Virus record (IMG/VR): IMGVR_UViG_3300050120_000210
Span: 64,001 to 128,000 of that record
DNA: 64,000 nt
DNA from: a virus
Strand: one strand, 5' to 3'
The notes under the pieces were generated by a model. That model worked only from the letters and a program-made list of their open reading frames with translations, made no database searches and was not told the DNA's origin. The first letter of the stretch is position 1. Every line of letters begins with the position of its first letter. Position numbers and translations under genes: made by a program. Below are positions 5,480 through 63,105 of the stretch, in pieces.

Positions 5480-5666
5480 AGATCAACTCATCGAAGAAGA
5501 TTTTGAAGGTGGCAGCCCGTGACTTCGTCGGGATGTGAAAAATCACGCCCCCGGCGACTTCATGATCGAAGGTGGATTTGGCGCCGCACACGTCATAAAC
5601 TCCGGCCATCTGTCGCATTTGCTCTATCTGAGCATCATCGACCGGTTTGGCCTTGAAGACATACAC
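5466..5666 (-). CDS. Small protein, divergent DAxLFKMF family member
   Basis: Ends IPTKSRAATFKIFF. Confidence 0.6.
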   Translation of the reverse strand: MYVFKAKPVDDAQIEQMRQMAGVYDVCGAKSTFDHEVAGGVIFHIPTKSRAATFKIFFDELIYEAG

Positions 5667-6535: not shown

Positions 6536-7245
6536 CGACGAGCCGGGCGGGCCAGAAGTCGGCCGCCATCATAGTCGTATGCCACGGCTAATTCTTCAAC
6601 AGTGTTCACAAGTTGCACGTTGTCTTCGTCGTGTGGGACCGGAGACACGTAAACAACCTCGAACTGCGGCGACAGGACCATTCGTTTCCAGAGAGAAGCG
6701 CCTTCATCTGTTTGCATTTCATCAGCTTCAAGCCAATCACAGACGTTGTTCATCAACCAAGCATACAGCACGAGCGCAATACCTTTCCCGGCATATGCGC
6801 GGTCAATGCGGACACTCGACACTTGCAAGCTTATACCACCATTGCCGTCGATGTCGGCCGATACCGAGCCAAAGGTGCCCGTTAGGTAGCCCACGGGTGT
6901 GATGTCGTCGAACACCACGTAGAATGCGGTGACGGCATCTTCGATAACGGGCACTTGCTCATCGCTCTCATCGTCGTTGCGATCTCGCGGGCGGGCGACG
7001 GAGAACCCAAGGCCCGGAAGCTCTCCCACGCGAACCATGGGCGTCTTGTCGCCAAATGGCGTGGCGCCCGGCTTCACACGGCGAGGAAGATCGGGGAACA
7101 ACAATGGCTGGCGAGGGTCTTCTTTGCCCGGCACGCCCATTTTTTCTGGCGAGAAATCACCAACTTGATCGTCCCACTCGTCGCTGAGATCAGAAACAAG
7201 CTGAATCTCACTGAGTGGTTGTTGGAAGAGTTCGAGCAAACGCAT
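6532..7245 (-). CDS. Putative virion-internal GNAT-like acetyltransferase
   Basis: N-term MRLLELF; VRIDRAYAGKGIALVLY...QTDEGASLW; CTAAATA 4 nt before ATG. Confidence 0.7.
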   Translation of the reverse strand: MRLLELFQQPLSEIQLVSDLSDEWDDQVGDFSPEKMGVPGKEDPRQPLLFPDLPRRVKPGATPFGDKTPMVRVGELPGLGFSVARPRDRNDDESDEQVPVIEDAVTAFYVVFDDITPVGYLTGTFGSVSADIDGNGGISLQVSSVRIDRAYAGKGIALVLYAWLMNNVCDWLEADEMQTDEGASLWKRMVLSPQFEVVYVSPVPHDEDNVQLVNTVEELAVAYDYDGGRLLARPARR

Positions 7246-7258
7246 CCGATATTTAGCG

Positions 7259-7412
7259 AAAAAGCCCCGGAGATCACTCCCCGAGGCTCTTGCGATTTAC
7301 AGGACTTCGCCCTTACCACAGATGTGCAGACGATGGCCGAAGGGAGTCCCGTCTTGACTTTCGTCGCCCGTGTCACAAGTCCGGCTGCGTCAGAACTGCC
7401 ATCGTCTGTTTT
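7259..7412 (-). ncRNA. Candidate ~150-nt structured small RNA with its own terminator
   Basis: Perfect 11-bp helix CAGACGATGGC/GCCATCGTCTG, GAC-GAAA-GTC tetraloop, crossing helix, hairpin plus U-tract at 7259-7288. Confidence 0.5.
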
Positions 7413-7451
7413 CCACGACCAACGCTATAAAATCTGGTTAACGAAGGCAAG

Positions 7452-28198: not shown

Positions 28199-28375
28199 GA
28201 ATAGTTCCTCCGTAATGTCCTATTTAGAATAGCTCAGTTTGAGAGTAGCGCAAGGATAAAACAAGCATAGGTCGAGTAGAATATCGCTTTCTGGGTGGAG
28301 ATAAATACAAGCTCCCACACGCGTGCTGTTTGGATAAGTAAACCAAACACATCTTTGCAGAAAGTTATTACCCCC

Positions 28376-31300
28376 ATGGGCATCAAGTACGACGGTCTGA
28401 AACTTGTTTGGTTGCACCAGTTCGGGGGTTCGACGACTTTGCTGACGTGGGTCAGCCCGGATGAAGGTGATGTCGGCTCTTTTGTCGGCGGCGCCAAAGC
28501 ATTCATTCCCGCCGCAGTTCGTGTCATCAATGGCCCGCGCCCGACTTTCAGCTTGTCTTCGGGTTCTCTGCCCACGGGCCTTAGCCTCGATACTTCGAGC
28601 GGCGCGGTCTCGGGTATCCTCAACAACATCGTCGGAAGCTACTCCTACACCCTCAAGGCTCAAAGTGGTCAAGTCAGTGTTGAACGCACGTTCTCTGCAA
28701 ACGTCGCGGTCAACCAAGCACCTGTGTGGAACACTCCGGCCGGTTCGCTGGGCAGCCAATTCGACAATACGCCCGTCAACCTGACGCTCGACGCTGTCGA
28801 TCCTGAAGCTCAGCCCGTCACGTTCGCTCTGATCGCTGGTTCTCTGCCCGGCGGTCTGAACCTGTCCAACACCGGTGCGATCACCGGTCTGTTGAGCCCG
28901 GTCACCGACGACACGACGTTCTTCTTCACCCTGACCGCTTCGGATGGCGTGCTCAACACGCAACGTGCGTTCAGCTTCACTGCCCTGCTCGATCAAGCCC
29001 CGGTTTGGAGCACGCACGGCAATCTTGGCACGCCCATCGAAAGCAGTGCATTCACGTTCCCGCTGGTGGTCACTGGCGCCCGCGCTCTGACCTACACCGT
29101 CACTGGCGGCCAACTTCCCGTTGGTCTGACGTTGGATGCCAACACCGGCGTGATCTCCGGCACGACGCCCGCCGTCGCGCTCGACTCCACGTCTACTTTC
29201 ATCGTCAGCGCGTCGGATGGCGTGAAGGCTACGGCTCAAACTCTGTCCATCATCGTCAAGAAGAACCTTCCCCCGGTTTGGAGTTCGAGCGGCACGGTCG
29301 CGACTGATTTCGGCGGCAAGGCAGTCAACTTCAACCTCATCGCGGTCGATCCCAACGGTTCGTCCGTCACCTTCACGTTGGGCAATGGTTCGGTTCTGCC
29401 GGGCGACCTGACTCTGTCGAACACCGGTCTCATCAGCGGCAACCTGCCCGATGTGGTCGCGTCCACCGACTTCAGCTTCACGGCTGTTGCAAGCGATGGT
29501 CTGCTGACCACGCCTCGCGCCCTGAAGATTCGCACGCTCCTCAACCAACCTCCGGTTTGGGATACGGCTTCCGGCCTCTCCCCGGTTCTCGAAGAAATGG
29601 CGTTCACTCGCGTTGTGTCGGCTCACGACCCCGCTGGTGTCCAAGCAATTCACTATAAGCTGGCGAGTGGTTCCCTGCCCGATGGCGTGACGTTGTCCAA
29701 CAACGGCGTCATTAGCGGCACCCCCGGCACGGTGGTGTCTGACACCGAGTATGATTTCAACATCGAAGCGAACAACGGCGTCCTCGCGGCTTCGCAAGAT
29801 TTCACGCTCATCGTCGCCAAGAACGTGGCTCCGGTGTGGTCCAGCAACGCTGGCCTCATCAACACCGTCCAAGGTCTGTCGATCTATAACTATAACCTGT
29901 CGGGACACGACGGCAACGGCACCATCCCGGTCTACACTCTGACGGCTGGCGCTCTGCCGGACGGCATCTCACTGTCCACGAGCGGAACCCTGTCGGGTAC
30001 GGTCGGCAACGTCGCAAACGCCACGCAGTATGACTTCACCGTCGCTCTGAACGATGGCTTCAATGCACCAGTCGGCCGTAGTTTCTCGATCATCGTCACA
30101 CCGAACGCACTGCCGGTGTGGGTCACCAACTCGGGCACCATCGCTTCGGCTTTCGAAACGGCTCCGATCAGCGTCTTCATCAACGCGTTCGACCCGGAAG
30201 GCGCGCAGATCACCTACTACATGGTTGGTTCTTCGAAGCTGCCTGATGGCGTGTTCCTGAACGGGTCCACCGGTCTCATTTCCGGCTCCCTGCCGAACGT
30301 TACGGAAGACACTGACTTCTCGTTCAACATCTACGCGGATGACGGCACCCCGAACAACGCCCGCCGCGCTGCTCGTATTTTCACGATCCACACAGTCTTC
30401 AACTCGGCGCCCGTGTTCCAGACGCCCGCAAACCTTGGCACGAGCATCGAAGGCCGCAACTATTCGCTGCAACTGAGCGCCACTGGTGTCGGTAACGGCC
30501 CGATGATCTACACCCTGTCGTCTGGCACGTTGCCCGCTGGTCTGACCCTGTCCCGCAGTGGTCTGATCTCCGGCGTGCTTCCGGCAGCCGCAACAGATAC
30601 CGGCTACACCTTCACGGTCAATGCCTTCAACGGCATCAAGAACGCAACGCGTACCTTCACGCTGACGGTCGCCCACGATCTGCCCCCGGTGTGGACCAGC
30701 AACGCTGGCACGCTCGGCAGCTTCTTCGGCAACAACGCCTTCTCGATCCAACTGGCCTCGGCTGACCCGAATGGCGTTGGCGTCGTCTACTCGTTGGCGA
30801 ACGCCACGACTCTGCCCCACGGCGTCTCTCTGTCTACCGGTGGTTTGGTTTCCGGTTCGCTCGACATCGTCGCGAACAACACGACCTACAACTTCACCGT
30901 TCGTTCGTCGGATGGTGTCTTGAGCGCCGACCGCAGCTTCTCGCTCACCTCGCTCGCCGAAGTGGCGCCGAACTGGGTCACCCCGGCCGGTCAAATCGCA
31001 CAAGTGTTCAAGAACACGAGCTACAGCAGCTTCTTGGTCGCTGCCGATTCGCAACATCTTCCGATCACCTACACCGTTGTGTCTGGGTCTCTGCCCACTG
31101 GTCTGACGCTGAACGCCAACACCGGCTTGCTTGCCGGTATCACGGCCAACGTTAGCATCAACACCGAATACGATTTCACTGTCCGTGCATCGAACGGCAC
31201 GCTGACTTCCGACCGAGCCTTCTCGTTCGTCGTTCAATCGGTCGCAACACCAGCATGGGTCACACCGGCCGGGTCGCTGGGTTCGATCCTGTCCGGCTAC

Positions 31301-34300
31301 ACCGGTGTCTTCAGCATGGTTGCGACGGACCCGCAGGGCCTTTCGCTCACCTATAGCTTCATCTCCGGCACGTTGCCCGCTGGTCTGTCGTTCTCTGGCG
31401 GGGGCTCGGCCACCATTCAGAAGAGCAGCCCGAGCGCAACTGTTCCGGTCACGTCTTCGGATCAAACCTATAGCTTCACCGTCGAAGTCACCAACGGCTT
31501 CGTGCCGGTCCAGCGCACCTTCTCGATCACGATCCTGAAGAACCTACCGCCGGTCTGGGTTTCCCCGACTGCTGGCAGCCTCGGCACCCAAAACGAAGGC
31601 ACTTCCTTCACGGTCACCCTCGACGCAACTGACCCGGAATCGCAAGGCATCTTCTATCTGGTGTCGGCGGGTTCTCTGCCGAACGGTTTTGGCCTGAATG
31701 CCAACACCGGCGTCATCAGCGGCACCACGGGCACGGTCTCCAACACGACCACGTTCAACTTCACCATTGATGCAGACGACGGCAAGCAAACGACTTCGCG
31801 GGCCTTCAGCTTCACCACTACGTTCTCGTCCGCTCCGGCTTGGACGACGGCTTCTGGTTCTCTGGCGAGCCAACTCGAACAGACCCCGTTCTCCGTCACT
31901 GTTGCCGCCACGGCGGCTGGACAAGGTATCCACTACACGGTCGCCAACGCCAGCATTCTGCCCACCGGCTTGACCCTTGACGCAAACACGGGCGTCATCA
32001 GCGGCACCCTGCCGCCGGTGACCACCGACACCGTTGATTCGTTCGACTTGGTCGCCACATCGGTCGTGACAGGCAAGGCAACGACTCGCTCGTTCAGCAT
32101 CACCATCATCAACGATCTGCCGCCCGTTTGGAGCACGGCCGCTGGCCTGTTCCTCGACGATTTGGCTGGAACTTCGTTCACCAAGAGCCTGCTGGCCATC
32201 GACCCGAACGGCACCACCGTTACCTACACCATCGCCAATGGTACTCTGCCGGGTTCGGTGACCTTCAACCCCAACGCGGGTGGTGGCACGGCTTCGCTCT
32301 CCGGCACTCTGCCGACCGTTGCCAACAACACGACGTATGCGATCACGGTTGGCGCGTCTGATGGCGCCTCGCAAGTTAACCGCACCTTCTCCTTCACATC
32401 CGAACTGGATGTGCCGCCGGTGTGGTCCACGAATGCTGGCGTCCTCGCCAACGCTGCCCCGGAATTCTCGACGTTCTCGACCACCGTCACTGCGGTCGAT
32501 CCGAATGGTAAGGGCGTTGTCTATGGCCTCGCAAACAGCACGTTGCTGCCGACCGGCCTTTCGCTGCAAGCCAACAACGGTTTGATCTCCGGCACGCTCC
32601 CGGCAGTCGCCAACGCTCTGGCCAATGATACCTACAACTTCACCGTCCGTGCTTCGGATGGCGTGATGACCGCTGACCGCAACTTCTCCATCGTGGTGAA
32701 GCCGGATGCGGCACCGGTGTGGGTCACCAACGCTGGCTCTATCGGTAGCGTTCTCGAAAGCCAAACCTTCTCTACGCACCTCGTGGCAAGCGACCCCGAT
32801 GGCGATACCGTCACCTATTCGTTGACCAACGGCACCACGATGGCGCCGGGCTTCAGCCTACTCGCCAATGGTTTCGTTTCCGGCCGCGCTGGCACCACCA
32901 CGGTGGACACCAGTTATCCGTTTGATGTGGCCGCTTCGGATGGTCACAAGAGCACGAATCGTTCGTTCACTCTGACCCTGCAATTCGACACGACGAACCT
33001 CGACGCCAACTCCGCATCCGTCACCATGCTGATGCCGTTCGAAGGCACGCCGGGCTCTAACGCTCTGGTCGATCAGCTTGGTCACGTTATCACGGACAAC
33101 GGTGCGGTCATTTCGAGCACGCAAGTTCAGTTCGGCAACACTGCGGTGTTCTTCAACGGCTCTAGCTCGTTCACGACGCCGATGCTGCCCGACTTCAACA
33201 TGCTCAACGTTGGCGTCTACACCGTCGAATTCTGGCTCTTCCCGACCGAGAACTCCTCGACCGAATATCTGATTTCCGAAAACGCTCTCGGAAACGACAC
33301 CAACGTGAATGCTACCTACTGGGGCATCAAGAAGTCAGGCACGTCTTATGCTCTGAATGTTGGTCCGCAAACCCTGATTAACGCCAGTAGTGGTCTCATT
33401 TCGGTCGCGGGCGGCACGGTGCTTCTCAACCAATGGCAACATATCGCCGTTTGTAAGAGCGCGGCAGGCACGAAGACCTTCCTCAACGGTGTGAACATCG
33501 GCACGGCAGCCATCAATGGCACGTCCGGTAACACGGCCACGAACCTCGTCGTTGGCCTAGGCTTCACCGGTTATATGGATGATCTTCGCATCACCAATGC
33601 AGCCCGTTACTCGGCAAACTTCACACCCGGCAAGGCCCCGGCTATCCCCGTGTGGGTCACCCCGGCAAACACCGTGCTGGTCACCGGCAGCGAAGGCAAT
33701 TCGATCACGAACGCCGTGGCGCTCTCCTTCACCGATTCATCCGGTCTCGGTATCAAGAACTACGTCACCGTTGGCGCTCTGCCGACTGGTGTGACACTTG
33801 ATACTTCCAACGGCACCGTGGTTGGTGTCATCCCGCAGGCTGTCCAAGGTGGCCAGATCACGCTCACAGCGCAAGGTAAGGATGGCAACAACAACCTGAC
33901 GGCCGCGCGTAACTTCATCATCCAATCGAACGCGCTGTCGGCCCCGAGTGACCTGCAAGTTAGTTGGCGCTTCAACAAGCAGACTTCCGCGAGCGGTTTC
34001 TTGGCCGACATTGGCAATAGCGGATTCGGAACACCGACTGCTGTGGGCACCTCATTTTCGTATGTGGCTGCTCCGAGCCCGCATGGAACAGACACCGCGC
34101 TTCAGTTCAACGGACAAACGGCAATGTATATGTCCGACACCACGAACCTGCGGTTCTTGGAGCATAGCAATTGGACCATTGAGATGTGGGTCTGGATGTC
34201 GGATTTCACTGCCGGTAAGAGCGTTGGAACACGTCTGCTCAGCATTGGCGATGGCGCCAATGGCGGGAATGGTATTTTCTGGTTCACCGGTGGCACCGGT

Positions 34301-37300
34301 GCAATCGCGGGCATCTACCAAAACACATATTCTTCGACGTTCCCGCAACCGACAAATGGCGCGTGGAATCACATGGCGCTTGTTCGTAACGGGAACCAAA
34401 TTACTGCCTACACCAACGGTGTTGCCGGGGCTCCGGGCACCATTACCGGAGAAGTGCCTGCCAACAATTTCGACAACTTGGGATTGGCCATCAACGGTCA
34501 CTGGCAAGCGTCGCCTACCGCAACCTTCTCGGTTGCTGGAACTATTGTGCGCGGTCTGAACATGTGGAGCACTTCGAAATACAACACCCCATTCACGCCG
34601 GTTTGGGATGACTTCCTCACGCCGGTTTGGGCGAACGCATCTGCGAATATCGCCAATGGTCTCGACGGCAACTCGTTCAATGCATCAGTCCTCGCATCTT
34701 CGTTTGGCAATACCTCCGTCACCTATGCGGTTAGCAATGCCGGGACGATGCCTGCTGGTTTGAACCTCGTGTCGAACGGCTACGTGTATGGCACGATTCC
34801 GACCTTCAACGCCAATGCTCCGGCGACGAGTTTCTCGCTCATCGCCACGGACACGAACGCGCGGATCACCCCGCCCAAAACATTCACGGTTACTTCGCTC
34901 GATGCAAAACCGGTTTGGGTCAGCAATGGTTCGCTTGGCAACAACACCTCTAACGCAACGGTCAGCCTGCAATTGGTCGCGACCGACCCGCGTGGTGATG
35001 TTCCGGTAACCTATGCTGTCGCCAATGGCGCTATTCCGGCTGGATTGACCTTGAACTCGAATGGTTTGATTACGGGTTCGCTCACTTTCCAGACGACGGA
35101 TACGGTTTCGTCCTTCACGGTTAATGCAGTCAACCATTCCGGCAAGTTCTCGATCTCTAATTCGCTTTCCTACACCGTGTTCACCGACTTCGATGTGAAT
35201 TTTGCGAACACAATGACATTGCTCCATGCCGATGGGAACTTCACGAACAGCGGCAACAGCACTGTCACATGGTCGGCTGGTGGCACTGCCACTGTGCAGA
35301 ACAGTGTTGTCAAGTTCGGCACTGGTGCATTCAGTACGACGGGCGTGGCCACTTCTTGGGTCCGTTCGTCTAACCTGTCCTCGCTATACAATCTGGGCAC
35401 TCGACCCTTTACCACGGAGTTCTGGGTCAACGTCGGTGGGTTCGTAAATACAAGCGGAGCTTGGCAGGCGGCCATTCTATTCTATGGTTTGGGAAACACG
35501 ACTGCCGGTAACCAAGGTAACGGTTTCGGTGTATTCGTGACCGGAACATCTGCGACCAGCGGTATTGTTAGCGTCGGTGCAGGCGGCTGGAACGCGGCTG
35601 GTACGGCTCAAAGCTTCTCGTTCGGTGGCAATATCACCGCCAATTTGAACCAATGGTATCACGTTGCTGCTCAACGTGACGCAAGCAACAATTTCTCTCT
35701 TTACTGGGATGGACAATTGGTTGGTGCAACAACTGCGGCAGTGACGGTTGGCCCGAATTTCACTACTTCTTATGTGTGGAACATCGGCACGTTGGCATCT
35801 GTTAGCGGATTTGAATATCCTCTCGTTGGTAAAGTCGATGACGTTCGTATCACTTACGATGTCGCTCGCTACACTGGAAACTCTATTACTGTTCCGAACA
35901 AGGCGTTCCCGAACACTGGACCTATTGCTCCTGTGTTCACTTCGCCAGTTTCCTTGGGAACTTCAACCAAGCTCGCCGTGGTCAATACTACCGTGGTCGC
36001 CACCGCAAGTGTCGCTAACGCTACACCAATTACGTATTCTCTCGTTTCCGGGTCTCTTCCGGGCACCGCGACATTGGCCAGCAATGGCTTGATTAGCGGC
36101 CTCGCTGCGAACGTTGTCACGGATACCGTGGACACTTTTACTATTGCAGCAGCCGACACGCAAACCCACATCAGCAATAAGACTTTCACATATACAACAT
36201 TGGTTGCCGGGGATCAGTTCTTCAGCAACGTGTCATTGCTTATCCACGGTGAAACAACCGCAAACAACGGTGTTGTCATTGACTCCGTTGGGGTCAATAC
36301 ATTCTCCACAAACAACGCAGCAAACGTCTCGACCGCCGCTTCGAAGTTCGGCAATTCGGCTGTTTTCTTCAACGGAGCGAACAGCACGACAAACGTCATG
36401 AAGGGCCTTCAAGGGCCTCCGACTTGGTTATCCAATTGGTTGTCGGGAACCGATTTCACGCTCGAAGCGTGGATCAACCCCACCGATCTCCCGAACCTGA
36501 CCGGCGGCGTCAACAAGACAGTCATCATGTGCGTTGCCAACCCGTCAACACTTGCCAACTACTGGCAATGGACGCTTTCGGGCTCGAACGCGACGACGAT
36601 CACCAATATGGATTGGGTCACTTTGACCCCCGGCACTGTGACCGATTTCCATACGACCGTCCCGGCTGGTTCGATTCCGATGAACGCTTGGACGCACATT
36701 GCGCTGACTCGCGCAAACGGTGTTGTACGCGGGTTCGTTAATGGTGTGTTGCTAGGCAACTCCATTGTTAACACCTCTGCATATAATGGTCCATCCTCTT
36801 TGTTCTTCGAACTCGGCGGCGAAACGCTAACTGGTGCTCCGGGTAACTTCCATGGTTACATGGATGAAGTCCGCATCACCACCGGCACCGCGCGCTATAC
36901 TGCAAACTTCACAGTGAGCGCGAATGCATTCCCGAACTTGCTCGACCCTAGCCCGATTTGGGCGAACTCGGGCTCGCTTGGTTTTGCCTACAAAAACAGC
37001 GCGATCAACGTTCAACTTGCGGCAAACTCTCCGATCAACGCCGTACCGCTTACCTACAGCTTGCTGTCTGGTTCGTTGCCGGGGACCGCTACACTCTCCA
37101 ACAGCGGATTGCTCTCGGGTGTGACAAGCAACGTGTCTACGGATACTGTGAGCACGTTCACACTTCGTGCAACGGACGTATTGGCACACACCACCGACCG
37201 CACGTTCACCTATACAACGGTCGCAAATGCCGATGTCAATTTCGGTTTGACCTCCGCACTGTTCCACATGGAAGATACCCCAAACAGTTCGAGCACCACC

Positions 37301-39775
37301 GATACGTTCACCGATGCAACGGGCCGGACCACGATGGTCAAGTCTGGAACCACTGCCACGACTTCGACGGCGACTGCCAAATTCGGTAATTCGGCGATGT
37401 ATTTCGCGGGGGCTACTAGCCAAGCAACCACAGGCTGCGCGCAGTCAACCGTCAACGCCGCAGGCTTTGGCTTCGGAACCAACGATTTCACTGTTGAATC
37501 GTGGGTTAACGTGAGTTCATTCCCGTCAACTGCGGTCGTGGCTACCTATAACAGCCCCACCACGGCCACTGTGACGAACGTCAATATTTCGTGGATTCTT
37601 CAGCTTACCGGGAACGCGACGACTATCACGGGGATCGATTTCTACAACCAAGGCGACACCCATATCGCTAACACCGTGGTCTCCGATCTGCGTGTTACTG
37701 GTCTGAATATTCCGACCAAGACTTGGACTCACTTCGCGATCACACGTCAGGGTCAAAACCTGCGGGCCTTCGTGAACGGAACGGTTGTCGGCTCCACAAT
37801 TATCACGGCCGGATTTAGTTATCCCACCATCTCGGGCAATACTTTGCAACTCGGCGGCGCCGTGGTTCCGGGCTTTGCTTCGATCTTGGATGGTTATCTC
37901 GACGAAGTTCGCATCTCCAACGGTGTTGCTCGCTATACCGCCAACTTCAGCGTGCAAACGTCGCCGTTCCCGAGCCTGATCGATCCTAGCCCGGTTTGGG
38001 CGAACTCGGGGTCGCTGGGTAGTGCTCTCCACAATAGCCCGATCAGCTTGCAATTGGTGGCGAACACCACCAACGCTGCCCCGGTTACTTACACCGTGCA
38101 ATCGGGCGCTCTGCCGGGCACTGTTACGCTCGCCAGCAATGGTCTCGTGTCGGGTGTTACCGGAAATGCAGCTACGGACACGGTGAGCACTTTCACTGTT
38201 CGTGCGACAGATACGCTGACGCGTTTCACCGATCAAACGATGTCGTATACGACCATCGCAAATTCGGACGTGTTCTACAGCAACGTGTCTCTTTTGCTTC
38301 ACGCGGAAGACACACCGAACGGCACAACTATCGCGGATTCCAGCGGTAAGCAGACCTTCACTAAAAACTCGGCAAGTGTTTCGACTGCCAATCAGAAGTT
38401 CGGTAATTCTGCACTGTTCTTCAATGGTGCAAATACGGCACTAATGGTTTCGACATCCAACCCGCCGGGTATCAGTTTCCCTACCGGAACCGATTTTACT
38501 GTCGAAATGTGGTTCAACATGACTAGCAACGGCGGAAGCAAATCAGCCGTTATGCTCGCGCATGGTCCGAATGCATTCAATCCCGCCAATACGAACAATA
38601 TTTGGTGCATTCAGATTGATGCAACGGCACCCGGTATTCAAGACATCCAGCTATACAATGGCGCTGGTGGAAATGGCGTGTCGGCTAACGTTACCAATCT
38701 TCCCTATGGAACATGGCATCACATCGCCTTTGCCCGTCAGGGTGGCACACTCCGTGTCTTTGTCAACGGCGTTCTGAATAACACGAACCCGAATACCTTC
38801 AACTATGTCGGCAGTGCTGCAACAGCACTGACCGTGGGTGGATTGAATGTTGAAGCCTTTAGCTTGAACATGAATGGTTACATGGATGAGGTTCGTATCA
38901 CCAACGGTGTTGCTCGCTATGTCTCTAATTTCTCGGTCGCCACATCGGCATATCCGAACCTTCAAGACCCGACGCCGATTTTCACGACTAACGCGGTTAC
39001 TTTCACGGTCGCCAATGCGGTGAACGTCAGCAACTCTGTGGTCGCCAATTCGCCTGTCAACCGGTCGCTCACCTATACACTGACCTCCGGTTCTCTAGCG
39101 AATGGCACAACGATGTTGAGCAACGGTCTGATTACCGGCCAACCGTTCTCGGTGGGCAATTCGGTCTTCACCGTTTCGGCGGCAATCACGGATGCTCCGA
39201 ACTCGTTCACGCCGACGACTCAGACGATCACCTACAACGTGGTCTCGGCCGGTTGGGCAACTGCTCTTGGCGATACTGTGACCCTGCCGTCTTACCTGAG
39301 CCCGGTGTATACCGCTACAACTGGCAACAACTCCAACGGCTTCGGTGTGTTCAGCAACCTTCTTCCGGCAACTGGACAATACTTCATCGACGTTACCTTG
39401 GCCAGTGGTCAAGATTCGTCACCGGCGTCGGTTGGTTTCTTGGGCTTGTCTACAGTGGCAACCGGCTTCAACTTCAATACCTCTGCCAACTATAAGGCTT
39501 GGTATTACACGGGAGCTTGGTTCGGTGATGCAACGACGGTATCGTCTGGTGACTCGTCCAACCTCATCACCGGCACCTATCGTATCGCCATCGACCGCAC
39601 CAACGGCCTGTTCTACATGCAACGGACCAGCGGAACACCTTCGACCGTCCGTTCAGCCCACCTTCCGGGCTCCGGCAATCTCTTCCTGATGATGCTTCCG
39701 CAAAGCACCTTCAGAGTTCCGGGTGTGACGATCATCAACGGTGGCATCCAAGCTGGCCACGGTGGTCTCTACTAA
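28376..39775 (+). CDS. Giant (~3800 aa) Ig-repeat/LamG fibre or adhesin
   Basis: About 23 He_PIG/cadherin-like repeats (PVW..GSLG..A.DP..TY.L..GSLP.GL.L..G.ISG), six LamG-like domains (FTVEFW, WHHIA, GYMDEVRIT), C-terminal SPRY-like domain; ATAAATA at 28301. Confidence 0.9.
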   Translation: MGIKYDGLKLVWLHQFGGSTTLLTWVSPDEGDVGSFVGGAKAFIPAAVRVINGPRPTFSLSSGSLPTGLSLDTSSGAVSGILNNIVGSYSYTLKAQSGQVSVERTFSANVAVNQAPVWNTPAGSLGSQFDNTPVNLTLDAVDPEAQPVTFALIAGSLPGGLNLSNTGAITGLLSPVTDDTTFFFTLTASDGVLNTQRAFSFTALLDQAPVWSTHGNLGTPIESSAFTFPLVVTGARALTYTVTGGQLPVGLTLDANTGVISGTTPAVALDSTSTFIVSASDGVKATAQTLSIIVKKNLPPVWSSSGTVATDFGGKAVNFNLIAVDPNGSSVTFTLGNGSVLPGDLTLSNTGLISGNLPDVVASTDFSFTAVASDGLLTTPRALKIRTLLNQPPVWDTASGLSPVLEEMAFTRVVSAHDPAGVQAIHYKLASGSLPDGVTLSNNGVISGTPGTVVSDTEYDFNIEANNGVLAASQDFTLIVAKNVAPVWSSNAGLINTVQGLSIYNYNLSGHDGNGTIPVYTLTAGALPDGISLSTSGTLSGTVGNVANATQYDFTVALNDGFNAPVGRSFSIIVTPNALPVWVTNSGTIASAFETAPISVFINAFDPEGAQITYYMVGSSKLPDGVFLNGSTGLISGSLPNVTEDTDFSFNIYADDGTPNNARRAARIFTIHTVFNSAPVFQTPANLGTSIEGRNYSLQLSATGVGNGPMIYTLSSGTLPAGLTLSRSGLISGVLPAAATDTGYTFTVNAFNGIKNATRTFTLTVAHDLPPVWTSNAGTLGSFFGNNAFSIQLASADPNGVGVVYSLANATTLPHGVSLSTGGLVSGSLDIVANNTTYNFTVRSSDGVLSADRSFSLTSLAEVAPNWVTPAGQIAQVFKNTSYSSFLVAADSQHLPITYTVVSGSLPTGLTLNANTGLLAGITANVSINTEYDFTVRASNGTLTSDRAFSFVVQSVATPAWVTPAGSLGSILSGYTGVFSMVATDPQGLSLTYSFISGTLPAGLSFSGGGSATIQKSSPSATVPVTSSDQTYSFTVEVTNGFVPVQRTFSITILKNLPPVWVSPTAGSLGTQNEGTSFTVTLDATDPESQGIFYLVSAGSLPNGFGLNANTGVISGTTGTVSNTTTFNFTIDADDGKQTTSRAFSFTTTFSSAPAWTTASGSLASQLEQTPFSVTVAATAAGQGIHYTVANASILPTGLTLDANTGVISGTLPPVTTDTVDSFDLVATSVVTGKATTRSFSITIINDLPPVWSTAAGLFLDDLAGTSFTKSLLAIDPNGTTVTYTIANGTLPGSVTFNPNAGGGTASLSGTLPTVANNTTYAITVGASDGASQVNRTFSFTSELDVPPVWSTNAGVLANAAPEFSTFSTTVTAVDPNGKGVVYGLANSTLLPTGLSLQANNGLISGTLPAVANALANDTYNFTVRASDGVMTADRNFSIVVKPDAAPVWVTNAGSIGSVLESQTFSTHLVASDPDGDTVTYSLTNGTTMAPGFSLLANGFVSGRAGTTTVDTSYPFDVAASDGHKSTNRSFTLTLQFDTTNLDANSASVTMLMPFEGTPGSNALVDQLGHVITDNGAVISSTQVQFGNTAVFFNGSSSFTTPMLPDFNMLNVGVYTVEFWLFPTENSSTEYLISENALGNDTNVNATYWGIKKSGTSYALNVGPQTLINASSGLISVAGGTVLLNQWQHIAVCKSAAGTKTFLNGVNIGTAAINGTSGNTATNLVVGLGFTGYMDDLRITNAARYSANFTPGKAPAIPVWVTPANTVLVTGSEGNSITNAVALSFTDSSGLGIKNYVTVGALPTGVTLDTSNGTVVGVIPQAVQGGQITLTAQGKDGNNNLTAARNFIIQSNALSAPSDLQVSWRFNKQTSASGFLADIGNSGFGTPTAVGTSFSYVAAPSPHGTDTALQFNGQTAMYMSDTTNLRFLEHSNWTIEMWVWMSDFTAGKSVGTRLLSIGDGANGGNGIFWFTGGTGAIAGIYQNTYSSTFPQPTNGAWNHMALVRNGNQITAYTNGVAGAPGTITGEVPANNFDNLGLAINGHWQASPTATFSVAGTIVRGLNMWSTSKYNTPFTPVWDDFLTPVWANASANIANGLDGNSFNASVLASSFGNTSVTYAVSNAGTMPAGLNLVSNGYVYGTIPTFNANAPATSFSLIATDTNARITPPKTFTVTSLDAKPVWVSNGSLGNNTSNATVSLQLVATDPRGDVPVTYAVANGAIPAGLTLNSNGLITGSLTFQTTDTVSSFTVNAVNHSGKFSISNSLSYTVFTDFDVNFANTMTLLHADGNFTNSGNSTVTWSAGGTATVQNSVVKFGTGAFSTTGVATSWVRSSNLSSLYNLGTRPFTTEFWVNVGGFVNTSGAWQAAILFYGLGNTTAGNQGNGFGVFVTGTSATSGIVSVGAGGWNAAGTAQSFSFGGNITANLNQWYHVAAQRDASNNFSLYWDGQLVGATTAAVTVGPNFTTSYVWNIGTLASVSGFEYPLVGKVDDVRITYDVARYTGNSITVPNKAFPNTGPIAPVFTSPVSLGTSTKLAVVNTTVVATASVANATPITYSLVSGSLPGTATLASNGLISGLAANVVTDTVDTFTIAAADTQTHISNKTFTYTTLVAGDQFFSNVSLLIHGETTANNGVVIDSVGVNTFSTNNAANVSTAASKFGNSAVFFNGANSTTNVMKGLQGPPTWLSNWLSGTDFTLEAWINPTDLPNLTGGVNKTVIMCVANPSTLANYWQWTLSGSNATTITNMDWVTLTPGTVTDFHTTVPAGSIPMNAWTHIALTRANGVVRGFVNGVLLGNSIVNTSAYNGPSSLFFELGGETLTGAPGNFHGYMDEVRITTGTARYTANFTVSANAFPNLLDPSPIWANSGSLGFAYKNSAINVQLAANSPINAVPLTYSLLSGSLPGTATLSNSGLLSGVTSNVSTDTVSTFTLRATDVLAHTTDRTFTYTTVANADVNFGLTSALFHMEDTPNSSSTTDTFTDATGRTTMVKSGTTATTSTATAKFGNSAMYFAGATSQATTGCAQSTVNAAGFGFGTNDFTVESWVNVSSFPSTAVVATYNSPTTATVTNVNISWILQLTGNATTITGIDFYNQGDTHIANTVVSDLRVTGLNIPTKTWTHFAITRQGQNLRAFVNGTVVGSTIITAGFSYPTISGNTLQLGGAVVPGFASILDGYLDEVRISNGVARYTANFSVQTSPFPSLIDPSPVWANSGSLGSALHNSPISLQLVANTTNAAPVTYTVQSGALPGTVTLASNGLVSGVTGNAATDTVSTFTVRATDTLTRFTDQTMSYTTIANSDVFYSNVSLLLHAEDTPNGTTIADSSGKQTFTKNSASVSTANQKFGNSALFFNGANTALMVSTSNPPGISFPTGTDFTVEMWFNMTSNGGSKSAVMLAHGPNAFNPANTNNIWCIQIDATAPGIQDIQLYNGAGGNGVSANVTNLPYGTWHHIAFARQGGTLRVFVNGVLNNTNPNTFNYVGSAATALTVGGLNVEAFSLNMNGYMDEVRITNGVARYVSNFSVATSAYPNLQDPTPIFTTNAVTFTVANAVNVSNSVVANSPVNRSLTYTLTSGSLANGTTMLSNGLITGQPFSVGNSVFTVSAAITDAPNSFTPTTQTITYNVVSAGWATALGDTVTLPSYLSPVYTATTGNNSNGFGVFSNLLPATGQYFIDVTLASGQDSSPASVGFLGLSTVATGFNFNTSANYKAWYYTGAWFGDATTVSSGDSSNLITGTYRIAIDRTNGLFYMQRTSGTPSTVRSAHLPGSGNLFLMMLPQSTFRVPGVTIINGGIQAGHGGLY

Positions 39776-40356: not shown

Positions 40357-40531
40357 AGGGAGGTTGATCCTCCTTTTTCCACCTGTCAACTGGTCAACGA
40401 AACTACGTAATTAACAGTGGTGTTTTGTCGCATATGGTGGGTGTAAATACACTTCCCCGTTGGACGCAACGAGGTATTGGCAAATATTTGACAAGCAAAA
40501 TCAACTACTTATTAGCAAAAGAGAAAGTAAA

Positions 40532-40963
40532 ATGAATATCAATCAACCTTACAAAATCACACAAATCGTTCTGAATGCAAGTGTCAATGAGAACATTCTT
40601 CCTTCTGAAGGAGAACAGTTCGATCTCTACACAAACTATCAAGAAAATACTACCATCAACGTCAAACTGCCGCCCGGTGACTTCGTTGGTGAAGAAAAAG
40701 TCATCCATTGGGTTGACCAATATGGCCATGGACTGGGCGATCTAGAAAATCCGGCACCAACTAATACTTCGATCTATATTCGATCCGAGGGTTGGATGGA
40801 TGACCAGAGAACTGGTATTGTCCATCGAACATTTACTGCCATTCGCGCAGGAGGTTACGCATTTTTCAAATGGGCTGGCGACCGCTGGCTGATTACCGCC
40901 TACTCGTCTAATGTCGATGAAAATACGGGGAATCCATATTTCTCGGGTGTATCCTCGGTTTAA
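40532..40963 (+). CDS. Hypothetical protein, AT-rich
   Basis: Start MNINQPY; GTAAATA upstream; terminator at 40968-41005. Confidence 0.65.
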   Translation: MNINQPYKITQIVLNASVNENILPSEGEQFDLYTNYQENTTINVKLPPGDFVGEEKVIHWVDQYGHGLGDLENPAPTNTSIYIRSEGWMDDQRTGIVHRTFTAIRAGGYAFFKWAGDRWLITAYSSNVDENTGNPYFSGVSSV

Positions 40964-41040
40964 GAATGGCGGCCCCTTCCTCACGGTTGGGGCCGTTTCC
41001 TTTTTGACTAAATATCGTCACCGACCTACATTGGTTTTAT

Positions 41041-41115
41041 GGACGCTTAGCTCAGCGGCAGAGCGCCTCGTTGACATCGAGGAAGTCAGTAGTTCGATCC
41101 TACTAGTGTCCACCA
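41041..41115 (+). tRNA. tRNA-Val(GAC)
   Basis: Full cloverleaf GGACGCT/AGTGTCC, loop TTGACAT, TTCGATC T-loop, encoded CCA; CTAAATA at 41008. Confidence 0.95.
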
Positions 41116-41124
41116 ACACCGAAG

Positions 41125-41451
41125 ATGGTCATGCGTCACAAACCGCTCCCGCCTCTTCCGCGCAATCCGTTCTGGCCGTTGAGCCCGATCAAATCGACAC
41201 CGATGACGATTCACATCCCGGTCGATTGTCTCCACAGCGTCAACCAACACGGCGCCGCCCTTAAGACAGAGGTGCGGCAATGGCTCGTCGAGAACACCAC
41301 CTCTTATGCCTGTCGTGTGATCGAGAACATCTGGGTCACCCCGGCCGAAAATGCCGCGTGGCGAAACCACCCACTCAATCGCCAGAACATGGCCTTCATC
41401 ACTTTCGAAAACGAAAATGATCTCCTGCATTTCAAAATGCGCTGGTCATAA
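41125..41451 (+). CDS. Small protein, DAxLFKMF family
   Basis: EVRQWLVEN; ends ITFENENDLLHFKMRWS. Confidence 0.75.
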   Translation: MVMRHKPLPPLPRNPFWPLSPIKSTPMTIHIPVDCLHSVNQHGAALKTEVRQWLVENTTSYACRVIENIWVTPAENAAWRNHPLNRQNMAFITFENENDLLHFKMRWS

Positions 41452-41520
41452 ATCGGCTGCAACGCCGTCACGAAACCGTCAACCCCAACAATCTTCTTAT
41501 CCACATATCTTTCATATTGC

Positions 41521-41990
41521 GTCCGGTGTGGGGCACGGTTAGAAAGAGATTGTTCCGGTCACGGACGGCTTCGGCCGACCAAGACCAGCACAGAAACCGA
41601 AAGGCCAATGTGTAGAGGGTAACCAAAGGAACTATCTAGTCACAGAACCATCGGTTCACCTCGTGAGTTACTGAGCAAACAGTGGTTAGCGCCACAAGGT
41701 TACTCAAAAAACAACGAATCAGATCGTTAGTTACTGAGCAGGTATTCGGAGGATCGAAGAGCAACGCCTCACCGCCGCGCCCGTAGGTTCACGATAGGTC
41801 AAGGGTCCGCCCTTATAGCGGAGACGAGAGGTAGCCGTCTTAAAAGGACTAACACTACCCGGAGACGAGATTACTCCGAAACCCGCAAGGGCCAACCCAA
41901 TCTCAGGTCTCGCTTCGGACCTGTGACATTCGCGTTCGCGACACGATGGCACTTTAAGGGCCGGAAGTTTTGACCAGCTTCCGGCCCTGA
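41521..41990 (+). ncRNA. Unclassified large ornate structured RNA (~470 nt)
   Basis: No credible ORF; cUUCGg, GAAA, GUAA and GCAA tetraloops on the plus strand; long-range helices 41639-45/41921-27 and 41745-51/41874-80. Confidence 0.7.
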
Positions 41991-42016
41991 GCATGTCTGG
42001 GATCATTCTGGACCGC

Positions 42017-42295
42017 TCATTCGCCTCTCCAAAACAGTTCGAACATCAGAGCATCGCGTTCCTCGTAGAAAAGGATCGTCTCGCGTGTTTTCTCCTGCCA
42101 TTGATTTTCTTGGCTGGGGGCCTCGATACGCTGGGAATAAAGTCCCCAGCCGCCCCTCGTATTCATATGCAGCCAATCCTTGATGTGCTGACGGACGCGC
42201 GACGAGCGCCAACTCGGCTCGCGGCGATTCACACCCGATTCGGGAATGTCGGCCTTGATGACGTGGGTTGAGCCGAAGGTAAAAGGTTCAAGCAT
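42017..42295 (-). CDS. Small protein, DAxLFKMF family
   Basis: IKDWLHMN; ends FYEERDALMFELFW. Confidence 0.75.
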   Translation of the reverse strand: MLEPFTFGSTHVIKADIPESGVNRREPSWRSSRVRQHIKDWLHMNTRGGWGLYSQRIEAPSQENQWQEKTRETILFYEERDALMFELFWRGE

Positions 42296-42542
42296 CGGTG
42301 GACCCCCAGAACATGAAAAACAGCACAGCGTCCCGTTCAAGCTCGAACAGCGCCACCGGCGAGGTTACCGATGGATGATAGAACAATGTGACGGTATACA
42401 ACGCCTGCATATTTGCTTTGAGCCAGTCCGCGACTGTCGGCGTGAATTTAAGGCCGCGTGTGCCTTCGTAGTAGGCCCCGCCGCCGACGACTAGGTCTAC
42501 CCGAAAACGATACGAGATACCATTGATGGGCTGCACGCTCAC
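42288..42542 (-). CDS. Small protein, DAxLFKMF family
   Basis: VADWLKAN; FELERDAVLFFMFW. Confidence 0.75.
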   Translation of the reverse strand: MSVQPINGISYRFRVDLVVGGGAYYEGTRGLKFTPTVADWLKANMQALYTVTLFYHPSVTSPVALFELERDAVLFFMFWGSTDA

Positions 42543-42853
42543 TCGAAACCCCAGAACATTTTGAAGAGGGCGGCATCAGATCGGGTGCGAAACAACACTC
42601 GGCAGAAATTAACGGTGAACGAACTCTGGCCGCTGGCGTCTCGGCGCCAGCCATTCCCGAATTGCACCAGCCACCCCAATTTCGAGCTTCCGAGCAACCA
42701 TGCGACCACTTCCGACTTGAGGGCCTTGTCGGCGAAATATGCCGGAGGCACATCGACGATGAACCAGTTCTTCAACAGAGGATCGGCCGGGAAGTGCACC
42801 GTTTCGCCGTCGTATCCGACCACGTCTTTCAGGATGTCTTCCGGCTCCCTCAT
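42539..42853 (-). CDS. Small protein, DAxLFKMF family
   Basis: EVVAWL; FRTRSDAALFKMFW. Confidence 0.75.
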   Translation of the reverse strand: MREPEDILKDVVGYDGETVHFPADPLLKNWFIVDVPPAYFADKALKSEVVAWLLGSSKLGWLVQFGNGWRRDASGQSSFTVNFCRVLFRTRSDAALFKMFWGFE

Positions 42854-61954: not shown

Positions 61955-63105
61955 TTAAAGCCGTGAGACTACAGGCTTAATGACTGGCCTTCCGAGATTA
62001 TAGCCCACTTGCGATGGACCTTCCCCGATCATCCACCCTCTGCTCTTGCGAGTCAAAAGGTAACCAGCCGATGCCGCCTTTTCCCTATCGAAGCCCGAAG
62101 GCATAGGCGAGTGGCTTATCTCGCGTCGTAGTGTGTCCTCGGCGGTTCCTTCTCCGTTGACCATCGCTGGCCATTCAGGGTTGCAGCCCCTACGAAAACC
62201 TTCCCACCAACGTCCGGTTGCCTTGCGAGCTTCCGACCGTCTCGGTTCCAAATCGCCACCCGAAGATGACGACCCAGCCGAGAATTAGGCATCTTGTTAC
62301 ACACTACCGGGGCAGAACTTTGCGTTTTTCTAAGACAGTTGGAATTGAACCAACGACCTCATCCTATGCAGGGATGCGCTCTACCAGAGTGAGCTATATC
62401 GCAATCCACCAAGACGTGCTGCCCCAGTTGCTTCACCAGCCTTTCAGCCGACAAAATACAACACGCCTCATCCCTTTCATCCGGCTAAGACTACTCAGGT
62501 GTCCTTTTGGACCTAGTGACGTTTTCACGCCCCAAGACCCTGAAGACTGCCACCCGCCCTAAGCTGCGAAGCCTCGGACCTGATGACTACCCGTTAACTC
62601 TCGACCATGGACGTGCTTTGCATGTCTCGGTGCAGGACGCAAACCCCGCTTGGACCGACCTGCTTTCCCCACCGGCGAACCGACAAGGGCATCGAGCCTA
62701 GTCCTATCCCCTCTCAGGGACCAAAACGCACATCGTCCGATCTATCTCCTATCCCGAAGGTAGAAGACCCTCTTTAGGAGGGTAGTTCGGGCCTCTTTGG
62801 ATGGACTACAGTTGCCTGTAGGGACGGTATGTGGACCTTCCGCCCTTATCCCACCTCGCGGCGGGTTATCCGATTATACTGGCGCCAAATCGCCAGTTCT
62901 CAACACCCGTCCTATCGGTCGAACGAACTACCCCGCACATCGACCGAAGCCGACGTGCAAAGTGATCCAGTAGGATCGAAGAGACGTTCCGCACGCCGCC
63001 CGAAGGCGACTTAACCCGACCGAAGCCGAGAGGCACGGAGTGCCGAAACTTGTGTGCTAGGAGCGGGTTTTCCCGCTCTCAGCGAAATTTTTTGGTCTGT
63101 GACCG
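61955..63105 (-). ncRNA. GOLLD-like giant ornate RNA (~1.15 kb)
   Basis: Promoter TTGACC-N17-TAGGTT; many UUCG/GNRA hairpins with minus-strand G-U pairs; segments resembling GOLLD as recalled (GUGUUGUAUU..AGCAAC..GCAGCAC, CUGCCCCGGU, UAUAAUC, UGUAGUCUCA); embedded tRNA-like domain. Confidence 0.75.
62331..62403 (-). tRNA. Degenerate tRNA-Cys(GCA)-like domain inside the GOLLD-like RNA
   Basis: Intact D arm, anticodon arm CATCC-CTGCATA-GGATG and T arm GTTGG-TTCAATT-CCAAC; weak acceptor stem, U37, no CCA. Confidence 0.7.

Follow-up and report, generated by a model that had tools for sequence, protein, structure and literature searches.

Large, elaborately folded RNAs of bacteria and phages, of which GOLLD, ROOL, OLE and raiA are examples, are rare, and every new class has been the start of structural and functional work. 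ROOL (Rfam family RF03087) is about 580 nt in length and GOLLD about 800 nt. On a smaller scale, the tRNA gene cluster of phage T4 gives rise to the stable RNAs C and D (species 1 and 2), which measure about 120–140 nt. A cryo-EM study describes ROOL as forming RNA-only multimers (bioRxiv 10.1101/2024.12.08.627333).

The RNA presented here is a genuine RNA family that is described neither in Rfam 15 nor in the literature that was searched, and it is of the same kind as the large phage RNAs found near tRNA genes. No relation to GOLLD, ROOL, OLE or raiA could be detected. The explanation of the locus as a whole that we consider fairly probable is a non-coding RNA of a new family, read from the plus strand and about 390–480 nt in length, that is found in a small set of very large T4-like phages of soil and peat and forms a folded particle derived from a precursor. 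The structure of the RNA is fairly well supported, its expression is supported by contigs from RNA libraries, and the inference of its function is weak.

The window analysed is a stretch of 64,000 nucleotides that comprises bases 64001–128000 of a 149-kb IMG/VR virus record. CheckV gives this record a completeness of 26%, which points to a phage several hundred kb in size. Within the window, the structured RNA sits in an ORF-free gap (41452–42016). The locus begins with a promoter and a tRNA-Val gene with the anticodon GAC, followed by ORF108, the gap, and a set of small minus-strand ORFs, the first of which ends at 42017. Immediately upstream of the RNA locus are a 3826-codon ORF and a DUF805 gene. 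The former is a single plus-strand ORF (28295–39775) that probably encodes a giant surface or fibre protein, since its counterpart in the related contig L003 (more than 3524 residues) contains He_PIG and Laminin_G_3 domains. None of the neighbouring genes is an apparent protein partner of the RNA. The gap does not code, as stops occur in every frame and the insertions and deletions relative to L003 are not multiples of three.

A scan of the region against the 4227 families of Rfam 15 gave no match at the gathering thresholds. With permissive filters, no family matched the RNA within 40500–42800 at E-values up to 10, and the RNAs of the homologous loci L003 and L005 gave no family match up to an E-value of 1. 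The models scanned included raiA, OLE, HEARO, RNase P, tmRNA, 6S, group I and II introns, T-box, retron and guide RNAs. The matches that were returned in or next to the region were the tRNA-Val and others of chance level outside of the RNA. ARAGORN, applied to the window and to the whole 149-kb record, identified tRNA-Val, tRNA-Asn and tRNA-Cys and no tmRNA, and the literature search turned up no account of the RNA or of the L003 assembly. The initial annotation, which had seen a large structured phage RNA of no recognised family, thus holds on both counts, with ROOL, GOLLD and introns among the models that failed to match. The GOLLD RNA of the same phage (RF02032; 61959–62469, minus strand) served as a positive control and was recovered over the full model length with 143.4 bits and an E-value of 2e-39. 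As this falls just short of the 150-bit gathering score, the RNA goes undetected in a default Rfam scan. The GOLLD RNA is about 20 kb from the new RNA and carries a tRNA-Cys-like insert at 62330–62403.

Introns are frequent in large phages, and an architecture of many helices with GNRA loops is broadly like that of catalytic RNAs. The RNA could on these grounds be a ribozyme, the remnant of a self-splicing intron or a mobile RNA element (group I-like, retron-like or guide RNA) with an unrecognised partner gene. This reading is very improbable given that no intron, ribozyme, retron or guide RNA family of Rfam matches at E-values up to 10, that no gene is interrupted, and that neither a reverse transcriptase nor a nuclease or homing endonuclease is found among the neighbouring genes. 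Furthermore, an nhmmer search of the whole 149-kb record with the RNA family returned a single copy and no paralogue.

With the window as the reference, two homologous loci were available as DNA, a full and syntenic one (L003) and a remnant of the 3' part (L005). L003 is a 569,661-bp NCBI contig that was reached through the relative of ORF108 and contains a 480-nt stretch homologous to the RNA. Its gene order is a giant He_PIG/Laminin_G protein, DUF805, a conserved small ORF, tRNA-Val, two small ORFs and the RNA. Between the window and L003, nucleotide identity is 80% in domain 1 of the RNA, 79% in its 3' part, 83% in tRNA-Val and 63.5% in ORF108. The RNA is therefore conserved to about 80%, the level of the neighbouring tRNA and well above that of the neighbouring ORF. 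The second locus, L005, is a syntenic 58-kb soil metagenome contig that came to light when JGI metagenomes were scanned for motifs. A deletion of about 600 nt has joined the first 52 or so codons of its ORF108 homologue to a point near RNA position 41832, at a 7-nt microhomology or direct repeat (CGATGGC), leaving an ORF108 homologue of about 55 codons. Consequently, the 5' two-thirds of the RNA are gone and the 3' part of about 160 nt is left (L005 3697–3860), which shows that at least one lineage can do without the RNA. Both L003 (5717–6004) and L005 (3287–3697) have an extra ORF of about 95–136 codons between tRNA-Val and the ORF108 homologue, and in L003 an extra 187-codon plus-strand gene (6863–7426) directly follows the RNA.

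As DNA, the RNA is known only from these three soil and peat megaphage contigs. When the gap was compared with 50,697 phage records by blastn, nothing matched, and no related locus was found in IMG/VR with ORF108 and the C-terminus of the giant protein as queries. Exact patterns from domain 1, the 3' part and the middle domains matched no viral contig, and exact-pattern scans of 185,579 prokaryotic genomes, one per species, were equally empty. In the metagenomes, the first such scan matched nothing and the second only L005. A pattern of GTTACTGAGCA occurring twice was matched in another viral contig (L002); this was a coding tandem repeat in an unrelated contig and the candidate was rejected. 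Relatives of ORF167 were confined to L003 and two tiny contigs that do not carry the RNA. When the translated frames of the RNA were compared with proteins, a word-indexed search gave no match and an exhaustive search gave three weak ones (E-values from 1e-4 to 9e-4) to much longer proteins, which were judged to be chance matches.

Four RNA libraries from four studies, two from soil (X2, X3), one from freshwater (X7) and one from sediment (X13), were aligned to 40900–42100 at a likeness of at least 80%. These four constitute the evidence of expression; 21 RNA libraries were listed with small word shares, and the other 17 were counted neither for expression nor for habitat. Every contig that fits lies within 41562–41953, a stretch of about 390 nt. 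The depth is zero across 40900–41555 and 41966–42100 so that the end of ORF167, tRNA-Val, ORF108, the 5' leader and the downstream sequence are all empty. One soil run of 13 million letters contained a 205-nt contig identical to 41746–41950 at a word depth of 562 together with three further diverged variants, while another soil run contained contigs of 400 nt and 346 nt with about 89% identity. Although the contigs carry no information on strand, ends or true expression level, carried-over DNA would cover the flanks as well; hence the RNA appears to be abundant and discrete, with many relatives in soils. On the contigs from the four libraries, the RNA is present as a unit distinct from its neighbouring genes, and the absence of a transcript, which the initial annotation had named as an argument against the RNA, is contradicted. 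Its description of the RNA as ROOL/GOLLD-grade overstated the size, the covered stretch being about 390 nt against about 580 nt and 800 nt.

The flanking genes converge on the RNA, and no sigma-70-like promoter of its own was called in the window or in L003. The last hairpin, moreover, is 29 nt past the point where the minus-strand ORF stops. These features would suit a structured 3' untranslated region or terminator zone between convergent operons that either stabilises the ORF108 message or stops transcription from both sides. This reading is nevertheless quite unlikely as the contigs cover the structured stretch and neither ORF108 nor the downstream ORF. A terminator would need far less than some 390 nt and 16 conserved helices, and the conservation of the region, about 80%, exceeds the 63.5% of the ORF that it would serve. 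At 41957–41988, there is no U tract on either strand and no intrinsic terminator was called by the scans; the hairpin is followed by GAGCAUGUCUGG on the plus strand and by UAAAGUGCC on the minus strand. We thus return to a separate non-coding RNA and turn to its fold.

A comparison-based fold consists of a four-way junction with UUCG and GNRA loops at the 5' end, a variable module, and then seven or eight local hairpins. All of the strings listed in the initial annotation are present where it placed them, including the loops CGGC-UUCG-GCCG (41566–41577), CC-GAAA-GG (41597–41604), GG-GUAA-CC (41617–41624) and CCC-GCAA-GGG (41882–41891). The proposal that these strings build a long-range architecture fared less well, since two of the three long-range helices are unconserved. 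The first helix, AGATTGTTCC/GGAACTATCT (41547–56/41628–37), stands as P1 of domain 1, and its sequence does not vary between the window and L003. In the case of GTCACAG/CTGTGAC (41640–46/41921–27), neither L003 nor L005 has a counterpart and the 3' arm belongs to a conserved local hairpin (41923–41952); for these reasons the helix was not upheld. The third, TTCGGAG/CTCCGAA (41745–51/41873–79), is reduced to 4 bp in L003 and competes with two better-supported local helices, 41745–48/41792–95 and 41860–64/41874–78.

Domain 1 (41547–41637, plus strand) is the four-way junction in which P1 encloses P2, P3 and P4. P2 is the UUCG hairpin, and its GGUC/GACC pairing becomes GGCG/CGCC in L003. P3 has a GAAA/CCAA internal loop and a GAAA tetraloop, with GCAC/GUGU replaced by CCCC/GGGG in L003. 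In P4, the GNRA tetraloop is kept as either GUAA or GAAA. Three contigs from two studies begin at about 41562–41563, inside P2, a weak hint that the mature RNA could be without P1.

The variable region (41638–41744, plus strand) contains two copies of a hairpin module plus a hairpin at 41682–41695. The module consists of a stem, a small CGG-UUCAC hairpin and a GUUACUGAG strand. As had been annotated, GTTACTGAGCA is repeated at 41667 and 41730, within a 32-nt repeat that is 78% alike, and it is specific to this lineage. The 63-nt duplication that holds both copies is absent from L003, which has one module, and 88 other letters take the place of 41646–41732 in two RNA contigs, in X2 and X13. The initial suggestion that the repeats may be sites of protein binding or multimerisation is not supported for conserved sites of this kind; they come from a lineage-specific duplication of one hairpin module, with GUUACUGAG as a strand of its stem. 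Of a second repeated string, CGGAGACGAGA, both copies are present (41819 and 41860) and the second is not retained in relatives. The X3 contigs show GUGG/CCAC changing to GCGU/ACGC or GCGG/CCGC in the variable region. A CUGAGCA heptamer occurs three times, twice in the duplicated module (41671–41677 and 41734–41740) and once past the terminal hairpin (41987–41996), where it is kept in L003. Two resemblances were rejected: ACAGAACC..CGGUU was considered as an RNase P CR-V element and is not conserved in L003, and GGUUCAC was excluded as a T-loop given that position 58 would be C.

Domain 3 (41745–41795, plus strand) is closed by the helix 41745–48/41792–95, which has three double changes in L003. 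In the X3 contigs, C41747–G41793 changes to U–A and the U41745·U41795 mismatch to G–C. The next segment (41796–41829, plus strand) holds a hairpin at 41798–41825 with the invariant AGGUCAAGG and, after it, a conserved GACGA. The hairpin that follows (41830–41859, plus strand) has a stem of GGUAG/CUACC plus CC/GG and a conserved loop, GCCGUC..UAAAAGG.CUAA. The initial annotation had paired GGTAG (41830–34) with CTACC (41855–59) as a pseudoknot. The pairing is correct and covaries, with UGCAG/CUGCA or GGCAG/CUGCC in relatives, and it forms the stem of a nested hairpin. When the window, L003, L005 and the X3 contigs are compared, two of its pairs show changes on both sides.

Further along the plus strand, 41860–41891 comprises two hairpins, GGAG/CUCC (41860–78) and CCC-GCAA-GGG (41882–91), the latter of which reads CCUC-UCAC-GAGG in a more distant RNA contig with a loose end at 41864. 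The two adjacent hairpins at 41905–22 and 41923–52 (41905–41952, plus strand) are the most conserved part of the family and are covered by RNA contigs from X2, X3 and X7; here the A–U pair 41905/22 changes to U–A and the G–C pair 41923/52 to A–U. The terminal hairpin (41957–41988, plus strand), annotated with 11 bp, was confirmed and has 12. Its loop keeps UUGACC and its stem covaries. The window, L003 and L005 each have a different stem, all of them fully paired, with three pairs changed on both sides. The hairpin is followed by a conserved plus-strand tail, GAGCAUGU(C/G)UGG (41989–42000).

The curated structure has 94 pairs in 16 helices, and 93.3% of the cells are paired across the three DNA sequences. 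Seventeen of the 94 pairs are changed on both sides, compared to 2–5 in controls in which the partners were slid by 1–3 columns, and none of 500 shuffles reached the values observed for the structure. Since the curated structure was derived from the same three sequences, these figures are indicative and do not amount to a formal test. As DNA, the RNA is represented by no more than two full copies and one 3' remnant, so that most of the covariation rests on two or three sequences. Independent structural support was drawn from the two X3 contigs of about 89% identity, which were partly rebuilt from difference tables and which add further co-changes, the GGUAG/CUACC to GGCAG/CUGCC exchange included. 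Helices are thus kept in homologues through compensatory changes, as in structured RNAs generally, and the lack of such changes, which had been anticipated as the other argument against the RNA, is not what was found. The region is structured beyond chance, with a fold z-score of −3.8 for the plus strand and with hairpins that L003 and L005 retain through compensatory changes.

The minus strand also folds well (z-score −4.4), and thermodynamics alone therefore indicates structure and not strand. A minus-strand product or a small protein might then be considered, for example from the 91-aa minus-strand ORF at 41731–42006, all the more as a 104-codon frame is open on that strand. The pairing argues otherwise. 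On the plus strand, there are 14 G·U cells and 2 A·C cells, and UUCG, GAAA, GUAA and GCAA are stable tetraloop types on this strand only, where the minus strand would misread them as CGAA, UUUC, UUAC and UUGC. One-base insertions and deletions relative to L003 and L005 break the frame, and neither the translated frame of the minus strand nor that of the plus strand has a real protein relative. A product of the minus strand or a small protein is accordingly extremely improbable, and the RNA is read from the plus strand on the basis of the G·U to A·C ratio and the tetraloops.

Upstream of the RNA, a sigma-70-like promoter, TTGACT-17-TACATT, is located at 41004–41032 (plus strand) and is the sole such site near the RNA. 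L003 has the same promoter at 5579–5607, also in front of tRNA-Val and also the sole one found. Around the promoter, the window and L003 share 93% identity, more than anywhere else in the neighbourhood. In both loci, a terminator-like hairpin precedes the promoter ahead of tRNA-Val (window 40964–41040, L003 5539–5615). The tRNA-Val gene (anticodon GAC; 41041–41115, plus strand) is found upstream of the RNA in all three loci. Between it and the RNA, ORF108 (41125–41451, plus strand) encodes a hypothetical protein that has no Pfam or PHROG match and a single homologue among 5.8 billion proteins, P0002, with 39% identity, in the syntenic L003 locus.

A conserved 44-nt stretch containing TTATCCACA (41478–41521, plus strand) shares 41 of its 44 positions with L003. 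No sigma-70-like promoter was called within it, and none of the promoter models tried fits. Since it occurs once in the 149-kb record, it is not a repeated promoter motif; it may belong to the RNA as its 5' leader or serve as a regulatory site. Within this stretch, TTATCCACA is a perfect DnaA-box-like nonamer (window 41497–41505, L003 6402–6410) that is present in 3 copies in the 149-kb record, where about 1 is expected by chance.

The promoter at 41004–41032 is likely to be the start of a transcription unit of tRNA-Val, ORF and RNA. In the simplest reading, transcription would proceed from this promoter to give a precursor of the tRNA, the small ORF and the RNA. Trimming would then leave a core that resists nucleases, and the mRNA portion of the precursor would decay. 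During infection, our best guess is that the folded RNA may act as a particle, either as an RNA-only assembly or as a protein scaffold, by analogy with what has been proposed for GOLLD and ROOL.

Two invariant motifs may bear on how such a particle would be held together. GGUCAAG (41797–41803) is complementary to UUUGACC in the loop of the terminal hairpin, and both are invariant while the stem of that hairpin differs in each of the three loci. The window, L003 and both X3 contigs all carry GGUCAAG unchanged; GGUCAA is replaced in one or more of the more distant RNA contigs (loose end at 41823). No covariation was seen for the pairing of GGUCAAG with UUUGACC. If formed, it could act within one molecule to close the 3' half, or link two molecules as a kissing pair.

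The same motifs also invite a comparison with the tRNA. The UUGAC of the terminal loop is identical to five letters in the anticodon loop of tRNA-Val(GAC) (UUGACA), and GUC is the codon of this tRNA. The RNA could thus be directed at tRNA-Val, with GGUCAAG offering the codon GUC plus AA or with the terminal hairpin mimicking the anticodon arm, and its role might be to sense tRNA-Val, to hold or protect it, or to serve as a decoy for a host anticodon nuclease. Its position behind tRNA-Val(GAC) in all three loci would be in keeping with this, as would the UUGAC that is kept in a loop whose stem varies, the invariance of GGUCAAG noted above, and a CUGAGC within the GUUACUGAGCA motif that is complementary to GCUCAG of the tRNA D arm. 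The strings are short, however, and were noticed after the fact. RNA–tRNA duplex energies show no excess over shuffled sequences (−50.5 against a mean of −52.9 for the window, −58.1 against −57.7 for L003), and complementarity to the tRNA does not extend any further than it does in shuffled sequences. The RNA has neither a T-box match nor a conserved UGGN element that could pair with the acceptor end, the mimic would have C in place of a purine at position 37, and both strings can equally pair with each other within the RNA. A tRNA-directed RNA is therefore rather unlikely.

Returning to the folded particle, a bolder account would combine these observations into a new class of large phage RNA that is specific to soil megaphages, unrelated to GOLLD and ROOL, and very abundant in natural soils, and that closes on itself or joins its copies by a GGUCAA/UUGACC kissing pair that copies the tRNA-Val anticodon loop. 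In this full form, the account is speculative and unlikely. Were the kissing pair and the anticodon copy to hold, the tRNA supply of a giant phage would be tied to a structured RNA that serves as a sensor, decoy or cage. The fixed place behind tRNA-Val(GAC), together with the anticodon-like loop, offers a concrete hypothesis, cheap to test, of why ornate phage RNAs recur beside tRNA genes. The RNA is also one of the few such cases for which public metatranscriptomes already show a discrete and sometimes very deep RNA in natural soils, and its length of about 400 nt is convenient for probing and cryo-EM. Since a GOLLD RNA is present in the same phage, one virus invests in at least two RNAs of this kind.

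Among described systems, the T-box would be comparable in its codon-like recognition of an uncharged or specific tRNA if the GUC of GGUCAAG reads the tRNA-Val anticodon. In contrast to a T-box, the new RNA has no match to the T-box model, no conserved T-box sequence and no antiterminator/terminator switch, and it is not located upstream of an aminoacyl-tRNA synthetase or other regulated gene. RNAs C and D of T4, compared by description only, are likewise stable RNAs beside the tRNA genes of a T4-like phage, and both they and the new RNA would probably arise from a common precursor with the tRNA; the new RNA has about three times their size, and a small ORF lies between it and the tRNA. ROOL is similar as a large ornate RNA that is often found in phages and near tRNAs, whereas the new RNA is smaller and does not match the Rfam model. 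With GOLLD, the new RNA has in common that it is a large non-coding phage RNA of many hairpins beside tRNA genes and is strongly expressed. It differs in that it fails the GOLLD covariance model, is about half the size and has no embedded tRNA, its architecture being instead a four-way junction with a series of hairpins behind it, and in that it is known from three soil and peat megaphage contigs only.
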